Source: Lautropia mirabilis
GTDB taxonomy: Bacteria > Pseudomonadota > Gammaproteobacteria > Burkholderiales > Burkholderiaceae_E
Direction: 5' to 3'
Length of the DNA: 24,000 bases
NCBI RefSeq assembly: GCF_900637555.1
Contig: NZ_LR134378.1
Location: forward strand, 3,050,784 to 3,074,783
Part shown: positions 16,101-21,226 of the stretch, piece after piece
Position numbering within the stretch: the stretch's first letter is position 1
Layout: each line of letters opens with the position of its first letter
Notes under the pieces: model-generated
Seen by the model: the letters and a program-made list of their open reading frames with translations, nothing else
Databases searched by the model: none
What the model was told of the DNA's origin: nothing
Position numbers and translations under genes: made by a program

Positions 16101-17107
16101 TGCGGCACGACCGGCCCATGCCCAGCACTCCCCACGCATCGTCCGCCCCTGCCTCGCAGCTGCCGCCCGTGCCACCGCTGCCCGACCTGAAGGGCCACCG
16201 CTTTGCCCTGACCGGGGCGGCCGGCTTTCTGGGGCGGCACGTCATCCGGCTGCTGCACCGCCAGGGAGCACGAATCATTGCGCTGCGCCGGGCCGAGAGC
16301 CGGCCACTGCCGGACGCAACGGTACAGGAAGCGATCATCGACCTGAATGATGAAGCCGCCTGCGCCCAGACGCTGCACGATCTGAGGCCGGACCACGTCA
16401 TTCACCTGGCCGGCTATGCCAATACGGATCGCTCGGTGGCCTCGATTGTCCAGGCGCTGCAGGTGAACCTGGTGGGCAGCATCAATCTGGTGCTGGGGGC
16501 GATGGACCGGGTGCCTGATTGCCGCGTGGTGGTGGCGGGCTCGATGGAAGCGGCCAATCCGTGGCAGGGCCCGCTGGCGCTGGGGTCGCCCTACGGGATG
16601 AGCAAGGCGATGGTGGAGGTGCTGACCGGTAGCCTGAACCGGCTCTATGGCACCAATGTGCTGAACATGCGCATCGGCATGGCCTATGGCGAGGACGACC
16701 CGAACCACCGGCGGCTGGTGCCTTCGGTGATCCTGTCGCTCCTGCAGGGACATGCGCCGGCCATTGGCAATCCGGGCCGGCTGTGCGACTGGATCCACGC
16801 CGAGGACGTGGCCGAGGCGCTGATTCGCGGCGCCCTGCTGCCCCGAGCCGAACCGGCCAGCATCGATGTGGGCAACGGCCGGCTGGGCAGCATCGCGGAC
16901 GTGGTGGCCATCATCCAGCGGCTGCTGGGTACCGAACTGCCGTTGCAGCCGGTGGAACGGCTGCAACGCAGCAACGAGCAGGCCCGGTGTGCCGACCTGC
17001 CGGCGATGACGGCGGCCCTGGGGGGCTGGCGTCCCCGCATCAGCCTGGAGGAAGGTCTGGCCCGCGCCGTGGCGGGCTACCGCCAGGAGCTGGCCGAGGC
17101 GCGGTGA
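16097..17107 (+). CDS. NAD-dependent epimerase/dehydratase (extended SDR) family protein
   Basis: Rossmann motif [12 protein letters not shown] and catalytic SPYGMSK (YxxxK). GTG 16097 overlaps the trmB stop (GTGA). ATG 16100 or 16118 are alternative starts. Confidence 0.85.
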
Positions 17108-17154
17108 CGCCATGCCGGGCGGGACGGCGCCATGCCGCCCGCACCCGGAACCGG

Positions 17155-17176
17155 ACGCCGCGCGCTCGCGCGGCGT
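17155..17176. other. GC-rich perfect palindrome between convergent genes
   Basis: ACGCCGCGCG-CT-CGCGCGGCGT. No U-tract on either strand. It lies 7 nt from the stop codon of the glutaredoxin remnant. Confidence 0.4.
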
Positions 17177-17183
17177 TCAGGCA

Positions 17184-17223
17184 TCAGCCCTTGAAGTAGG
17201 CTTCCAGATCGTCGCTGCCGCCG
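17184..17223. repeat. Left copy of the imperfect direct repeat bounding the islet
   Basis: The 34-nt core at 17190-17223 (cttgaagtaggcttccagatcgtcgctgccgccg) matches 20498-20531 at 32/34. tcagcc (stop plus Gly codon) is also shared. The right copy has an extra 6 nt (ctgcac). Confidence 0.85.
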
Positions 17224-17225
17224 GC
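17184..17225 (-). pseudogene. Orphan duplicate of the 3' end (last 13 codons plus stop) of the peroxiredoxin-glutaredoxin gene
   Basis: Minus strand encodes [13 protein letters not shown], compared with [15 protein letters not shown] at the end of the intact gene (20486..). No glutaredoxin homology upstream of it. Confidence 0.75.
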
Positions 17226-17434
17226 TGGCTCGCGCTCAGAGAAGAATGTTTGAGAGAAACCGGTCAGCAGCAGGCCAGAACCGGGCACGAACCTGTACGA
17301 ACACTTCCCTGCCAGCAACAAGAGCCCCCAGACCCCGGGGGAATCAGTTATCTCGGACCTCAGATGGACCAAGACGCCCGGGAAATCAAACCATTTTCTG
17401 TACACTGGCGACACCTTGACAAACCTTGAAAGCA

Positions 17435-17806
17435 CTACCTCTCTTTCAACCTGTACACGCGTCCGGCAGTAACTTTCTCTCCTCTCCCAACAAAGACATC
17501 GTCAACATCATCGTCAGCGACACGGCCCAATATATACTTTACAGCAGAATCATCCCCTTCATTCTTGCCAAGTCTATAGTACAAAAACAAAACGCCCCTT
17601 TCCTTCGCCAAAGAACTGAAAAACCCCATCCTCGACTCCGGTAATTCAACAGCCCCGTCCGAGGAACAGGAAAACCCATCCCCATAATCAATCCTAGTAT
17701 AAACAAAATACCCAGCGAATTCGCCATGAAAAACAAATCTGAAATATCTGTCTTTCGTTACGAAATTCAATGGTGACTTGCTGCACAAAACACTTATGTA
17801 CGACAT
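17435..17806 (-). CDS. Small AT-rich cytoplasmic protein, candidate immunity/antidote protein (no recognisable family)
   Basis: 123 aa from ATG 17806, preceded by GGGGGAGAG: MSYISVLCSKSPLNFVTKDRYFRFVFHGEFAGYFVYTRIDYGDGF...DDDVDDVFVGRGEKVTAGRVYRLKER. No signal peptide or TM segment. Lies immediately downstream of the secreted precursor gene and has the lowest GC in the window. The TTG start at 17854 in the track is less likely. Confidence 0.6.
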   Translation of the reverse strand: MSYISVLCSKSPLNFVTKDRYFRFVFHGEFAGYFVYTRIDYGDGFSCSSDGAVELPESRMGFFSSLAKERGVLFLYYRLGKNEGDDSAVKYILGRVADDDVDDVFVGRGEKVTAGRVYRLKER

Positions 17807-17820
17807 CACTCTCCCCCAAA

Positions 17821-17841
17821 GGGCCTCATGACTTGAGGCCC
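17821..17841 (-). promoter_or_regulatory. Intercistronic stem-loop between the precursor and immunity-like genes
   Basis: Minus strand GGGCCTCA-AGTCA-TGAGGCCC (perfect 8-bp stem) followed by TTTGGGGGAGAGTGATG. The hairpin foot abuts the Shine-Dalgarno and start of the downstream gene. Confidence 0.5.
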
Positions 17842-17860
17842 AGAATATTATCAAAACAGA

Positions 17861-18331
17861 TCAACGTGGCGACCCATACCAAACATGAGATCCGTTACGG
17901 GGATTTGGGTGAAAATGAGTATAACGAGCCCCAGAACCGGCATGGAACTCACGAATCCCATTTCGACCAGCAATACGGGAGGCAATTGCTCGGCTGGGGG
18001 CCCAAACATTCGTAGCACCACGCGCAATCATGGCCTGCGCAACGCGCTGTGTAACCCAACGCTGCACGATGAATCTTGATGCAGTCATGACCCCAATTGC
18101 GACCAAGGGCGCTACCGAACCCTCAGTCTTCTCCATCTCCTGAGTCGACAGCACGGCCAGCTGCATCGGCTTGCCCGAAGCCTCGAACATGCTGTTGATA
18201 TCATCCTGACTGAAGGTACTGAGCTGGGGCGACAGGGGCGCAGTACTTACAGCGCTTTCACCGGCGTACGCCTGCGTGGAAACCATGCCGACAGCGGCCA
18301 GAACAAGGACCATGCGTTTGATCGTGCTCAT
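17861..18331 (-). CDS. Secreted 156-aa precursor with Sec signal peptide and internal double-glycine-type leader motif; candidate toxin/bacteriocin
   Basis: ATG 18331 lies 5 nt after GGAG. Signal peptide MSTIKRMVLVLAAVGMVSTQAYA|GE. Residues 58-72, LAVLSTQEMEKTEGS, fit the LSxxELxxIxG(G/A/S) leader consensus. The C-terminal 84 aa contain a hydrophobic/amphipathic basic segment and end in REFHAGSGARYTHFHPNPRNGSHVWYGSPR. The 205-aa track ORF start is rejected. Confidence 0.65.
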   Translation of the reverse strand: MSTIKRMVLVLAAVGMVSTQAYAGESAVSTAPLSPQLSTFSQDDINSMFEASGKPMQLAVLSTQEMEKTEGSVAPLVAIGVMTASRFIVQRWVTQRVAQAMIARGATNVWAPSRAIASRIAGRNGIREFHAGSGARYTHFHPNPRNGSHVWYGSPR

Positions 18332-18418
18332 ATAGACTCCATGTGGTCGAACACAATAACAAGCCTCGAAAGACTCCCGAGGCGCCGATGACGGTGTTGC
18401 CTCACCGCCAATCCCTGG

Positions 18419-18465
18419 GGCTGGTACATGATGAAAATCACCATGTACCAGCCTGTTTTTTCCCC
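18419..18465 (+). terminator. Perfect 12-bp hairpin with a T-tract only on the plus (antisense) strand, in the C39-precursor intergenic region
   Basis: GGCTGGTACATG-atgaaaatcac-CATGTACCAGCC followed by TGTTTTTTCCCC on the plus strand. On the minus strand it is preceded by an A-run and followed by no U-tract. Confidence 0.45.
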
Positions 18466-18482
18466 TGTCACTACCCATGACG

Positions 18483-19277
18483 TCAGGGAATGCTTCTGAA
18501 ACTCAGTTGCTGCACCGCACCAACACTCTGCCGCCATGGTGCCCTGGAGAAATACGCTTCTGCCCTGCTCACATCCACCGATGCCGGCAGAACCGCCAGA
18601 AACTTGCCTGCCAGTTCGGGCTGATCCTTGCCATCACGGGTCTGCCACATGTCCAGAAACTGCGCGCGACTGTAGGTGCGATTCCCGAGGCTCGGATCGG
18701 CAAGCCACACCGTGTTGCCACTGATGCCACGCAGTACGCTGAAATGATCGTCCTTGCGTACCTTGATGTACACCACCACCGGCATCTTCAACCGGGCCAG
18801 TTGCTCCCAGCTGGCGGCAAATCCCTGTGCCCGAAAGCCAAACTTTGGCAGAGCGCGGGTCATGTCATCAAAGCTCGCCCGGGCATCGCCCTTGTCCATG
18901 GCCTTCAGCAACTGCTCCTCGGTCAGCTTCTGGCCGTAGAACCCGTTGAGCAACGTAGCCAACGATGCGGCACCACAGGAGTAATCCTGATCCTGCTTGA
19001 CGATCTGCCGGTCACGCAAGGTTTTCCAGCTTTTTACCGGAATCTGCCCCTTCACCACTTCGCTGGAGAGAATGAAGGCTTCCGGTCCGGGTTCAGGCTG
19101 CTTGCGCTTCGGCAGTAACGGAATGGCCTGCTTCCGCCCTTCTTCCTGCTTCGGGCTTCCGCCGGCCTCTCGTTCCCCAGAAGCCGATGAGCCGTCTTCT
19201 GCCCAAACGTCCTGGCTTTGCCACGCTGCAAGGCTCACACTCAGACTGACGACCAGAAGCATTCTGTCTGCAGACAT
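18483..19277 (-). CDS. Stand-alone C39-family cysteine peptidase with N-terminal signal peptide (predicted periplasmic)
   Basis: ATG 19277: MSADRMLLVVSLSVSLAAWQSQDVWA|EDG... C39 hallmarks are present: QDQDYSCGAASLATLLNGF (oxyanion Gln and catalytic Cys), DDHFSVLRG (His), VWLADPSLG (Asp). There is no ABC transporter domain. The track ORF start at 19523 overlaps the upstream gene and is rejected. Confidence 0.8.
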   Translation of the reverse strand: MSADRMLLVVSLSVSLAAWQSQDVWAEDGSSASGEREAGGSPKQEEGRKQAIPLLPKRKQPEPGPEAFILSSEVVKGQIPVKSWKTLRDRQIVKQDQDYSCGAASLATLLNGFYGQKLTEEQLLKAMDKGDARASFDDMTRALPKFGFRAQGFAASWEQLARLKMPVVVYIKVRKDDHFSVLRGISGNTVWLADPSLGNRTYSRAQFLDMWQTRDGKDQPELAGKFLAVLPASVDVSRAEAYFSRAPWRQSVGAVQQLSFRSIP

Positions 19278-19296
19278 TCTCCCGCCCCTTTCACCA

Positions 19297-20175
19297 TCAG
19301 AACGTATACAACCAGTTGACCCGCATCTCGGCTCCCTGCCCGCCGGACGCATTGGTCTTGAGCGTGACGTTGAGGGTATTACCCGTGGCAAACCCATATC
19401 CGAAACCAAGCTGCAGATCTGTAGCGGTCCGATTGATTCCCATTGCGGCACCATTGAAGCGCTCCGCTGTCTGGCGCGTCCATTGCATGCCGGTCGTGAG
19501 TGTGACCCGATCATTGACGGCAAAGCCCACGGAGGGCGTCAGTATCAGCAGGTTGCCGCCCCTGGCAGTATCGGCACCATCACGGTAGCTGCGGCTGAAG
19601 CGGTAGGCCCCCGTCAGTGAAAACACGACCGGATCCAGTGCCTTGTAGGTAGTGAAGCCCAGCATGGCCGACCTGAATGACTTGCTGGATGAGCGCAGGC
19701 GCTGGCTGAGGGCCACTTCGGCAAAGCCAAGAAAGGCTGGGTAATCATCCTCCTCGCGGAACTGGTGGTTGATCCCCGCCCAGGTGTCTGCAAAATGGTT
19801 CAGGCGGTTGCTGCTGCGCCCAGCCGCGTCCCGAACCCGTTCACTGTCGTGGAGGTAACTGGTACGCAGCAGCACCTCGGTTTTGCCGGTGATGCCATAA
19901 CGCAGACCCAGTGTACCGACCAGTGTGTCGCGGTTGCTGGAGCGTTCGCCCACGGCGGTGGGCACCTGTACAAACGACGTCGGCCCGGTTTGTACGGAAA
20001 TGGGCTCGCCGGTAGAGACGCCTGTCTGGTCCACATTGGCGTAGGCAAAGGACAGATCCAGCTTGAATCTGCCCTTGTCGGTAACGAGGTCCTCAACCGT
20101 CAGCGGCAACTCAGCAAACGCTGATGCAGCATGACAAGAAAGCATGAGCAAAAGGACAAAATGTTGGCCACGCAC
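19297..20175 (-). CDS. Outer-membrane beta-barrel protein (resembles the MetA-pathway/'transporter' OMP family)
   Basis: GTG 20175 lies 5 nt after AGGAG. Signal peptide MRGQHFVLLLMLSCHAASAFA|ELP. Alternating amphipathic strand pattern throughout. C-terminal OMP beta-signal ...MRVNWLYTF ends in Phe. The stop is 19 nt before the C39 start. Confidence 0.75.
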   Translation of the reverse strand: MRGQHFVLLLMLSCHAASAFAELPLTVEDLVTDKGRFKLDLSFAYANVDQTGVSTGEPISVQTGPTSFVQVPTAVGERSSNRDTLVGTLGLRYGITGKTEVLLRTSYLHDSERVRDAAGRSSNRLNHFADTWAGINHQFREEDDYPAFLGFAEVALSQRLRSSSKSFRSAMLGFTTYKALDPVVFSLTGAYRFSRSYRDGADTARGGNLLILTPSVGFAVNDRVTLTTGMQWTRQTAERFNGAAMGINRTATDLQLGFGYGFATGNTLNVTLKTNASGGQGAEMRVNWLYTF

Positions 20176-20204
20176 AACATCTCCTGCAAAAATAACCTGA
20201 ATGA

Positions 20205-20250
20205 ATCATATTTTCACAAGAAAAAACACATTGTCAATATGAAAATATAA
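20205..20250 (-). promoter_or_regulatory. Candidate sigma70 promoter with overlapping inverted repeat (operator) for the islet cassette
   Basis: Minus strand TTGACA (20237-20232)-N16-GAAAAT (20215-20210) with TGT just upstream of the -10. The 9-bp inverted repeat ATATTTTCA (20208-20216) / TGAAAATAT (20240-20248) brackets the -35 and overlaps the -10. Embedded in a strongly AT-rich stretch at 20180-20320. Confidence 0.45.
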
Positions 20251-20382
20251 CTTGTTATTTATCAATTTATAATTTGGATTTTTATCAAATTAGCGGCATT
20301 TGACTCCAATCTCCGAATATCATGCTTTGCTCGTCCAGAGCACAGATTGAGGCACTGATCTGCCAGAGAGCGGCCCTGCCCC

Positions 20383-20427
20383 AAACGAAAACGGCTTCTG
20401 CAGGACGGAGCCCGCCCGCAGAAGCCG
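20383..20427 (-). terminator. Rho-independent terminator of the peroxiredoxin-glutaredoxin gene
   Basis: Minus strand CGGCTTCTGC-(16 nt)-GCAGAAGCCG followed by TTTTCGTTT. Confidence 0.7.
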
Positions 20428-20485
20428 CATGGTCCTGGGGTTATGCCCCCACGGATTGGGGCAATTGTCCCCTGCAGCGCCAGCG

Positions 20486-20531
20486 TCAGCCCTGCACCTT
20501 GAAGTACGCCTCCAGATCGTCGCTGCCGCCG
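20486..20531. repeat. Right copy of the imperfect direct repeat bounding the islet (functional 3' end of the gene)
   Basis: See the left copy at 17184-17223: 32/34 core identity plus the shared stop-proximal tcagcc, and a 6-nt indel. Confidence 0.85.
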
Positions 20532-21226
20532 ATGTGACGGCCACCGATGTAGACCTGCGGCACGGTGGTGCGACCGCTGATGGCGCGCACGGCCACGGTG
20601 CTGGCGTCACGGCCCAGCACGATCTCCTCGTAGGACAGGCCCTTTTCCTTCAGCAGGGCCTTGGCCTTGGCGCAGAAGGGGCAGCCCGGCTTGGTGAAGA
20701 TGGCCACGGACGGCGGCTGCTGGTAGTTCGGGTCCAGGTACTTCAGCATGGTGTCGGCATCCGACACCTCGAACGGGTCACCCGGCTTGTCCGGCTCGAT
20801 GAACATCTTCTTGACGGTGCCGTCCTCGACCAGCATCGAATAACGCCACGAGCGCTTGCCGAAGCCGAGGTCGTTCTTGTCCACCAGCATGCCCATGCCG
20901 GCGGTGAACTCACCGTTGCCATCGGGAATGACGCCGATGTTCTCGGCTTCCTGGTCGTCCTTCCAGGCGTTCATCACGAAGGTGTCGTTAACCGAGACGC
21001 ACAGGATGCTGTCGATGCCCAGCTTCTTGAAGACCGGGGCCAGCTCGTTGTAGCGCGGCAGGTGGGAGGACGAGCAGGTGGGCGTGAAGGCGCCCGGCAG
21101 CGAGAACACCACCACGCGCTTGCCGGCAAACAGTTCGTCGGTGGAAACATCCACCCAGGCATCGCCCGAGCGGGTATGGAAGACGACGGCAGGAACCTTC
21201 CTGCCTTCATGATTGGGGAGTTGCAT
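20486..21226 (-). CDS. Hybrid peroxiredoxin (Prx5-type)-glutaredoxin protein
   Basis: N-terminal Prx5 domain with [12 protein letters not shown] (peroxidatic Cys). C-terminal glutaredoxin domain with [11 protein letters not shown] and [14 protein letters not shown]. Architecture matches the Haemophilus/Neisseria Prx-Grx hybrids. GGAGG Shine-Dalgarno 9 nt upstream. Confidence 0.92.

Follow-up and report, generated by a model that had tools for sequence, protein, structure and literature searches.

In the present study, we analysed a four-gene islet on the minus strand of a 24,000-nucleotide (nt) stretch of the Lautropia mirabilis genome (contig NZ_LR134378.1, positions 3,050,784 to 3,074,783), which is called the window below. 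The islet encodes an outer-membrane protein (gene 1), a stand-alone C39 cysteine peptidase (gene 2), a small secreted precursor (gene 3) and a soluble protein (gene 4). It is probably a horizontally acquired two-step export module of the NapF/NapP type, independent of ATP-binding cassette (ABC) transporters, which serves a small polymorphic toxin and carries a cytoplasmic immunity protein. In the proposed mechanism, the Sec pathway would export the barrel, the peptidase and the precursor, and signal peptidase I would remove precursor residues 1-23. The periplasmic C39 peptidase would recognise the leader that ends the acidic 49-amino-acid (aa) propeptide and cut after G71-S72, and the strongly basic 84-aa product would exit via the FapF-like barrel. 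The released product would act on competing cells, probably at a cytoplasmic target because its partner protein is cytoplasmic, while the gene 4 protein would neutralise the toxin in the producer and its kin. A first-pass annotation, made from the sequence alone, had proposed essentially this function; the proposal agreed with every computational test that was run, but its novelty had been overstated.

Export machinery and the precursor leader

Poncin et al. (2025) described the gonococcal nap island, a horizontally acquired region of about 3.4 kb with low guanine-plus-cytosine (GC) content, which encodes NapF (FapF-like), NapP (a C39 peptidase) and peptides that bear a GG (double-glycine) motif; NapF and NapP have predicted signal peptides (PMC11798529). 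Genes 1 and 2 of the islet are almost certainly homologous to this machinery. Gene 2 shares 57% identity with NapP over 191 aa (E 1e-76), and it matched the Pfam family Peptidase_C39 (PF03412; E 1.2e-24, 87.1 bits, cut-off 22) as well as PF13529 (E 3.8e-5). Its residues Q95, C101, H178 and D194 align to the Gln, Cys, His and Asp of PCAT1 (4RY2), and C101 is the sole cysteine of the protein. A signal peptide covers residues 1-26 (VWA/E), and Pfam and NCBIfam detected no ABC domains; against the NCBIfam models of ABC-fused C39 proteins, gene 2 reached 15-59 bits, with cut-offs above 500. The PF03412 match and the PCAT1 alignment agree with its first description as a C39 peptidase with signal peptide and intact catalytic residues that lacks ABC domains. 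The best NCBIfam models for gene 2 were FapD (NF058616; 89.5 bits, cut-off 330) and FilB (NF050078; 84 bits, cut-off 475), and since these scores lie far under the cut-offs, the protein is a relative and not a member of these families. In PHROGs, weak C39-type matches were obtained for gene 2 alone and nothing else was found.

Gene 1 was aligned to gonococcal NapF with 40% identity over 147 aa (E 2e-36). Its signal peptide (residues 1-21, AFA/E) and its C-terminal WLYTF, both of which had been pointed out previously, can be read directly in the sequence. The AlphaFold2 model of the protein has a predicted local distance difference test (pLDDT) score of 75 and shows 12 long strands, with the barrel beginning at about residue 37. 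When this model was compared with PDB by Foldseek, the top 18 matches were all FapF chains (5O67/5O65/5O68), with a best E-value of 1.5e-12 and template-modelling (TM) scores of 0.60-0.72, followed by the COG4313 channel 4RL8. On this model, gene 1 is a FapF-like 12-strand beta-barrel. At the sequence level, phmmer gave no match to PDB sequences at E<=10, FapF included, and the family PF13557, which the first-pass annotation had named for a check, was recorded for some homologues only; gene 1 itself had no Pfam match at E<=0.1. Homologues of gene 1 number more than 283 and are about 291 aa long. Conservation in the barrel family peaks in the segment of residues 22-36, ELPLTVEDLVTDKG, which was modelled with low confidence and in which L23, P24, L25, T26, E28, T32 and G35 are invariant among 26 sequences; this segment could plug the barrel or serve to dock the peptidase or the leader. 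Passage of the mature product through this barrel seems rather likely.

The precursor carries the address on which the proposed route depends. Its Sec signal peptide has neither a lipobox nor a twin-arginine motif, and a signal-like N-terminus is kept across the gene 3 family. The leader L58..L61-S62..E65-M66..T69.G71-S72 occupies positions -15, -12, -11, -8, -7, -4, -2 and -1 and matches the LSxxELxxIxGG register, with a predicted cut after S72. In the alignment of 22 family sequences, E65, M66, G71, A74, P75 and L76 are invariant, and so are H139, H141, R145, G147 and H149 of the C-terminal block. An exhaustive profile search with the family recovered 279 proteins at E<=1e-3, many by signal and leader alone. 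Among 191 retrieved matches, the leader motif was present in 167, with a median start position of 58; within these 167, L stands at -12 in 151, M at -7 in 164 and T at -4 in 161, followed by G at -2 and by A at -1 in 145. The double-glycine-type motif noticed earlier in gene 3 is therefore no chance match, because no other part is conserved as strongly across its family, which counts more than 160 proteins. Past position -1, the sequences of different cargo types are unrelated. Conservation thus ends at the predicted scissile bond, which is the pattern expected of a common processing and export signal, and processing by a C39 peptidase at the gene 3 leader is likely.

The cargos found under this leader include Gly/Ala-rich hydrophobic microcin-like peptides, 36 domains of the gene 3 type, 'RHGPSGH'-type domains and GIY-YIG-like proteins. 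Four of the latter (P0075, P0103, P0126 and P0184) have the pattern G.RI.YVGITN..RR..QH and sub-threshold GIY-YIG matches of 18-20 bits against a cut-off of 22.6 (E 0.0007-0.004), a hint of nuclease cargos under the common leader.

The precursor core, its partner and the opposing evidence

The mature product of gene 3 begins with a conserved segment, VAPLVAIGVMTASRFIVQRWVTQ, which is followed by the core domain. The core (about residues 95-156) also forms the C-terminus of two Rhs proteins, P0134 and P0141, where it stands after the DPxGL boundary and has RHS-repeat open reading frames (ORFs) directly upstream, and it is C-terminal again in a PT-HINT protein, P0145 (PF07591, E 7.7e-19). The profile E-values of these Rhs and PT-HINT matches were about 1e-7 over the whole library. 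By these sequence relationships, the gene 3 core is a candidate toxin domain common to Rhs and PT-HINT toxins. Only the exported small form of the domain has the 22 hydrophobic residues at the N-terminus (VAPLVAIG...). In Helicobacter baculiformis (L013:3432-4107), a toxin of the gene 3 type with a VAPLVAIG-type segment and a signal peptide, and without a GG-type leader, was found; its flanks contain no barrel or C39 gene, and the next, overlapping ORF contains a GFYFYIRY motif that recalls the gene 4 family, although the hidden Markov model (HMM) of that family was negative. A fold comparison of the gene 3 model with PDB gave a weak VOC/glyoxalase-like module as the best match (Foldseek E 1.2), which was rejected as not significant.

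Gene 4 has no signal peptide by hydropathy and matched neither Pfam nor any immunity family. An HMM built from six proteins outside the window, each encoded immediately 3' of a gene 3 homologue, recognised it with an E-value of 8.8e-14 and matched no other ORF of the window. Seven close relatives were found by word-indexed search, and the family link is defined by position and by the HMM built from the loci. Members of the family always lie directly downstream of gene 3 homologues. This fixed linkage, together with the retention of gene 4 in degraded islets (described below), is the pattern expected of an immunity gene, and from the sequence evidence it appears fairly probable that genes 3 and 4 are a toxin and its immunity protein. 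The earlier proposal of gene 4 as an immunity gene is in keeping with its conserved partnership with gene 3, which persists in decayed islets. The expectation that genes 3 and 4 would be hypervariable was not borne out: they belong to one conserved cassette type among many, and variation takes place by the exchange of whole cassettes.

Several points weigh against the toxin-export reading. The main one is the sole experimental study of such homologous machinery, which dealt with cargos unrelated to gene 3 and reported autolysis but no antimicrobial effect: synthetic mature Nap peptides were without antimicrobial activity, and autolysis was reduced in nap mutants (PMC11798529). It is also not clear by which route a released 9-kDa protein would get to a cytoplasmic target. 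Neither Pfam nor PDB, the latter by sequence and by fold, gave a match to the core of gene 3, to which no activity can thus be assigned, and the ORFs that follow the Rhs and PT-HINT relatives (L015, L016) were undetected by the gene 4-family HMM. At position -1, some leaders have E, T, Q or K, residues atypical for C39 sites, and a cut after G71 is therefore also possible. Furthermore, a 186-192-aa membrane protein of some related loci is missing from the window, and the signal peptides of genes 1-3 were judged by direct reading and hydropathy (n-region, hydrophobic core and AxA-type site).

The autolysis results could be taken to mean that the islet is a Nap-like, self-directed system, in which a cationic product promotes autolysis of the producer or harms host cells and gene 4 is no kin-immunity protein. 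The NapF/NapP homology and the charge of the mature product, which at an isoelectric point (pI) of 12 is cationic like the mature Naps, fit such a system. We consider it unlikely, because gene 3 is unrelated to NapA, NapB and NapC, because its core is a folded domain common to Rhs and PT-HINT toxins, and because a dedicated cytoplasmic partner has been kept in decayed islets. In addition, a tblastn search of the window with all Nap proteins matched only NapF and NapP, with no homologue of NapA/B/C/I/H/R.

Alternatively, gene 3 may encode a non-toxic secreted or periplasmic protein, for example a metal-binding protein or an enzyme with a His triad, and gene 4 an unrelated neighbour, a regulator or a chaperone. 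The invariance of H139, H141 and H149, the lack of matches to toxin families and the failure to find gene 4 homologues beside the Rhs versions would agree with this. Against this, the domain sits where toxins end, behind the DPxGL boundary of Rhs proteins and behind PT-HINT, and the same leader precedes Gly-rich microcin-like and sub-threshold GIY-YIG-like cargos that are each followed by small immunity-like genes. A non-toxic role is distinctly unlikely on this evidence, and a toxin with its immunity protein is preferred below.

Islet layout, insertion site and related loci

The four ORFs had been placed on the minus strand, with short gaps, in a segment of lower GC content, and all of this was confirmed. 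The islet measures 3,308 base pairs (bp) with one repeat copy counted in, its four ORFs are intact, and the spacers between genes 1-2, 2-3 and 3-4 are 19, 151 and 54 bp. The GC content is 0.55 in the islet against 0.67 in the remaining window, and 0.44 in gene 4, which the first-pass annotation had described as very AT-rich and soluble. The positions of the genes and other features are given in the table.

Table. Features of the islet and of its insertion site, in window coordinates (a slash marks a predicted cleavage site)
Feature	Position	Strand	Remarks
Gene 1, NapF-like outer-membrane protein	19297-20175	-	292 aa; C-terminus ...WLYTF
Gene 2, NapP-like stand-alone C39 cysteine peptidase	18483-19277	-	264 aa
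Gene 3, candidate toxin precursor	17861-18331	-	156 aa
Gene 3 predicted Sec (signal peptidase I type) signal peptide	18263-18331	-	residues 1-23, MSTIKRMVLVLAAVGMVSTQAYA/G (AYA/G); direct reading and hydropathy
Gene 3 predicted acidic propeptide	18116-18262	-	residues 24-72, pI 4.1; alignment and leader statistics
Gene 3 predicted mature product	17864-18115	-	residues 73-156; 84 aa, 9.2 kDa, pI 12.0
Gene 4, candidate cognate immunity protein, soluble	17435-17806	-	123 aa
Promoter-like site	20210-20237	-	TTGACA, 16-nt spacer, TG-extended GAAAAT; consensus scan 10/12, consensus match only
Inverted repeat, gene 2-gene 3 spacer	18419-18453	-	16-nt arms, 94% complementary
Terminator-like stem, gene 2-gene 3 spacer	18363-18383	-	consensus match only
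Terminator-like GC-rich hairpin 3' of gene 4	17325-17341	-	consensus match only
Left repeat copy	20497-20531		inside 3' end of intact peroxiredoxin-glutaredoxin gene (20486-21226, minus strand)
Right repeat copy	17189-17223		displaced ancestral 3' end of peroxiredoxin-glutaredoxin gene, stop codon 17184-17186

Ribosome-binding sites are present for all four ORFs; that of gene 1 is an AGGAG placed 6 nt ahead of a GTG start, and the promoter-like site lies within the AT-rich leader 5' of this gene. The hairpins in the gene 2-gene 3 spacer (18363-18453) may form a putative attenuator or regulatory site. No Rfam match was obtained across 17000-20700 at E<=1, and the PADLOC defence models did not match any of the four proteins. 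Pfam and NCBIfam gave no match for genes 1, 3 and 4. ORFs antisense to the islet had no Pfam match and were regarded as non-genes. In the NCBI annotation of L. mirabilis ATCC 51599 proteins, genes 1 and 3 are called 'hypothetical', gene 2 is called 'C39 family peptidase' or 'LagD', and gene 4 is unannotated.

It is virtually beyond doubt that the islet is an insertion in the 3' end of a peroxiredoxin-glutaredoxin gene. Its genes are bracketed by a 35-nt direct repeat (94% identical), which matches the ends of the segment delimited in the first-pass annotation. In strains with an empty site, which carry a 244-aa allele, the peroxiredoxin-glutaredoxin gene is followed directly by a convergent epimerase gene. 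The empty-site sequence (L023:5001-5735 was used for comparison) agrees with that of the window as far as the left repeat and resumes at the right repeat, which gives the islet size stated above. Past the left repeat, the islet sequence provides the peroxiredoxin-glutaredoxin protein with a new end, ...YFKVQG* (246 aa) instead of ...YFKG* (244 aa), and the 83-aa ORF at 17184-17435 is a by-product of the displaced gene end and not a gene. No integrase, transposase or recombinase gene was found within the islet. A housekeeping ABC transporter a few kb away was excluded from the system, because empty-site strains have it too. A phage origin was also rejected, as the five weak matches to viral contigs (32-34% over 53 aa) were spurious; the one inspected (L033) is a tail-fibre-like protein with only 'NGSHVWY' in common.

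The 246-aa allele linked to the islet was counted on 214 contigs and the commonest 244-aa alleles on 613, 182 and 50 (rough counts), so that the islet-bearing form is the less common one in L. mirabilis. Strains of a third class have a degraded islet, in which the barrel gene is lost, the peptidase is cut to its C-terminal 104 aa without the catalytic Cys, and gene 3 is without signal and leader, while gene 4 is intact with 1-3 substitutions. Such islets were found in L. mirabilis metagenome contigs, where L017:6742-8590 and L018:6742-8440 correspond to 17001-20700 of the window. The deletion fuses the peptidase remnant to gene 3 within the leader, and the ORF that starts from M66 (MEKTEGSVAPL...) contains the entire mature domain without export signal, beside an intact gene 4. 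At the former position of the barrel gene, L017 and L020 have an additional 80-aa ORF (L017:7015-7257). These degraded versions, the missing accessory membrane protein and the absence of a recombinase gene would be in line with a cassette that is a decaying remnant with no present function in this strain. This is very unlikely for the window, in which the four ORFs are intact with ribosome-binding sites; the exact sequences of the islet proteins recur on 5 to 191 contigs each, and the complete genome CP146288.1 matches the window with 100% identity.

The recurrence of the gene set, which had been suggested as a check, was confirmed, as the genes co-occur in at least nine other loci. Homologues of genes 1-3 were found together in a 2.9-Mb metagenome-assembled contig, Hydrogenophaga and a Bacteroidota metagenome-assembled genome; in Acinetobacter, on Rep3/Mob plasmids and a 135-kb plasmid; and in Moraxella nonliquefaciens, Neisseria weixii and N. 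dentiae. M. lacunata has a gene 3 homologue and a barrel homologue only, the latter at the edge of the DNA examined. In two further sampled contexts, the order is barrel, leader-bearing cargo, small ORFs and then C39.

The loci of N. weixii (L005:6230-11362) and N. dentiae (L010:729-4656) are orthologous to the gonococcal nap island, with identities of 64% for NapF, 71-77% for NapP, 55% for NapA and 57% for NapR, and they also contain cargos with Sec signal and leader. In the N. weixii locus, a NapA-like membrane protein (L005:10227-10511) occupies the immunity position, directly after the remnant of a truncated Gly-rich cargo (L005:10050-10223). It may therefore be that gonococcal NapA is not a secreted peptide but an orphan immunity protein. 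In Moraxella, the loci of M. nonliquefaciens (L008:1300-13100) and M. lacunata (L007:6200-16390) are arrays of at least five leader-bearing cargos, every one followed by small membrane proteins of 2-3 helices. Fragments of the 5' end of the barrel gene (signal peptide and ADLPLTV.DILADK) are interspersed at 1337, 2192, 4120, 5204 and 7636 of L008, and at least one lies in L007 (13897-14037); these fragments suggest that cassettes are exchanged by recombination at this segment. Between the cargo and the C39 gene, two loci (L001:8956-9516 and L028:8758-9336) encode the conserved multi-pass membrane protein of 186-192 aa mentioned above, which had no Pfam match and may be an accessory export or immunity component.

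Relation to known systems and significance

The first-pass annotation had regarded the inverted topology, with the C39 peptidase and its substrate in the periplasm, as undescribed. The topology was borne out; however, it has already been described, because genes 1 and 2 are homologues of NapF and NapP and because FapD/FapF is a precedent. Like the nap island, the islet is a low-GC, horizontally acquired region (about 3.3-3.4 kb each) with NapF and NapP homologues and with small precursors that have a Gly-type cleavage motif and adjoin small downstream proteins. It differs in that its precursor combines a Sec signal, an internal leader and a folded 84-aa domain and bears no relation to the three Nap peptides, in its cytoplasmic partner, and in the order barrel-peptidase-cargo-partner, whereas in the nap island the cargo lies between barrel and peptidase.

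Rouse et al. (2017) showed that FapD has a Sec signal and is active in the periplasm, and that secretion via FapF depends on its catalytic Cys (PMC5557850). As in the Fap system, a Sec-exported C39 peptidase, with FapD as the top NCBIfam match of gene 2, is here combined with a dedicated 12-strand barrel, whose fold is closest to FapF. Unlike FapF, gene 1 has no periplasmic coiled-coil and no sequence-level similarity to it, and NCBIfam detected no Fap partner (FapA/B/C/E) among genes 1, 3 and 4. The amyloid subunits that Fap secretes have no canonical leader, the substrate of FapD is still unknown, and Fap has no immunity gene. FilB, the peptidase of a putative pilus system of Acinetobacter, is also a stand-alone C39 protein, and the islet has no Fil partners. 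Fap-like or putative Fil pilus-like export of a surface fibre or amyloid, with gene 3 as a C39-matured structural subunit assembled outside, takes up the best NCBIfam models of gene 2 and the best fold of gene 1, but it is hardly credible given scores so far under the cut-offs, the absence of Fap and Fil partners, of Q/N-rich amyloid repeats and of the FapF coiled-coil, the mutually unrelated cargos under one leader and the presence of the gene 3 domain on Rhs toxins.

The toxin-export module preferred here shares the C39 fold, the Gln/Cys/His/Asp residues and the leader register (-15, -12, -8, -7, -4, -2, -1) with the ComA, CvaB, LagD and PCAT1 systems. In those systems, a cytoplasmic peptidase is fused to an ABC exporter, the leader is located at the extreme N-terminus without a Sec signal and export takes place in one step, whereas the islet has no ABC or membrane fusion protein gene and its leader lies inside the precursor, where a Sec signal and some 35 aa of spacer precede it. 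As in microcin-immunity pairs, many sibling cargos are Gly-rich and hydrophobic and are followed by small membrane proteins. The islet also resembles polymorphic toxins (Rhs, PT-HINT and contact-dependent inhibition (CDI) type), in which a common C-terminal domain is found on different delivery modules with a small gene directly following, and one conserved delivery module serves interchangeable cargo-partner cassettes. The delivery differs, as it consists of a short Sec signal and a C39-processed propeptide instead of a large filament or shell protein. In the survey of Zhang et al. (2012), trafficking by Sec plus a C39 propeptide is not among the listed modes (PMC3482391). In the literature outside subscription-only papers, we found no description of a cargo family with Sec signal and GG leader. 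The Sec-plus-leader address, the very large and varied range of cargos under it and the connection with Rhs/PT-HINT toxin domains were not found in the literature and are taken as new here.

Class II microcins, which have double-glycine leaders in Gram-negative bacteria, leave the cell via peptidase-ABC exporters in one step. If the reading of the islet is true, there would be a second bacteriocin route, Sec-dependent and ABC-independent, in which the double-glycine leader logic is moved to the periplasm, and gene 3 would be the first clear candidate substrate for the periplasmic C39 peptidases. There is about an even chance that this is a widespread, so far unrecognised route for bacteriocins and polymorphic toxins in Proteobacteria. 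A periplasmic NapP-type C39 peptidase would read a two-part N-terminal address, made up of a Sec signal and some 48 aa of propeptide with LSxxEMxETEGA at the end, and a FapF-like barrel of the NapF type would complete export. Its cargos would range from microcin-like to nuclease-like, each with an immunity gene, and the nap island would be a degenerate locus, with NapA in the immunity position. The medically relevant gonococcal island would thereby gain an alternative reading. The sharply defined leader, with more than 160 different cargos, could guide the mining of new families of toxins and immunity proteins and could serve as a portable tag for secretion. For L. mirabilis itself, strains with the full islet, with the degraded islet that kept gene 4 and with the empty site would allow producer, immune-only and sensitive phenotypes to be compared in naturally occurring strains.

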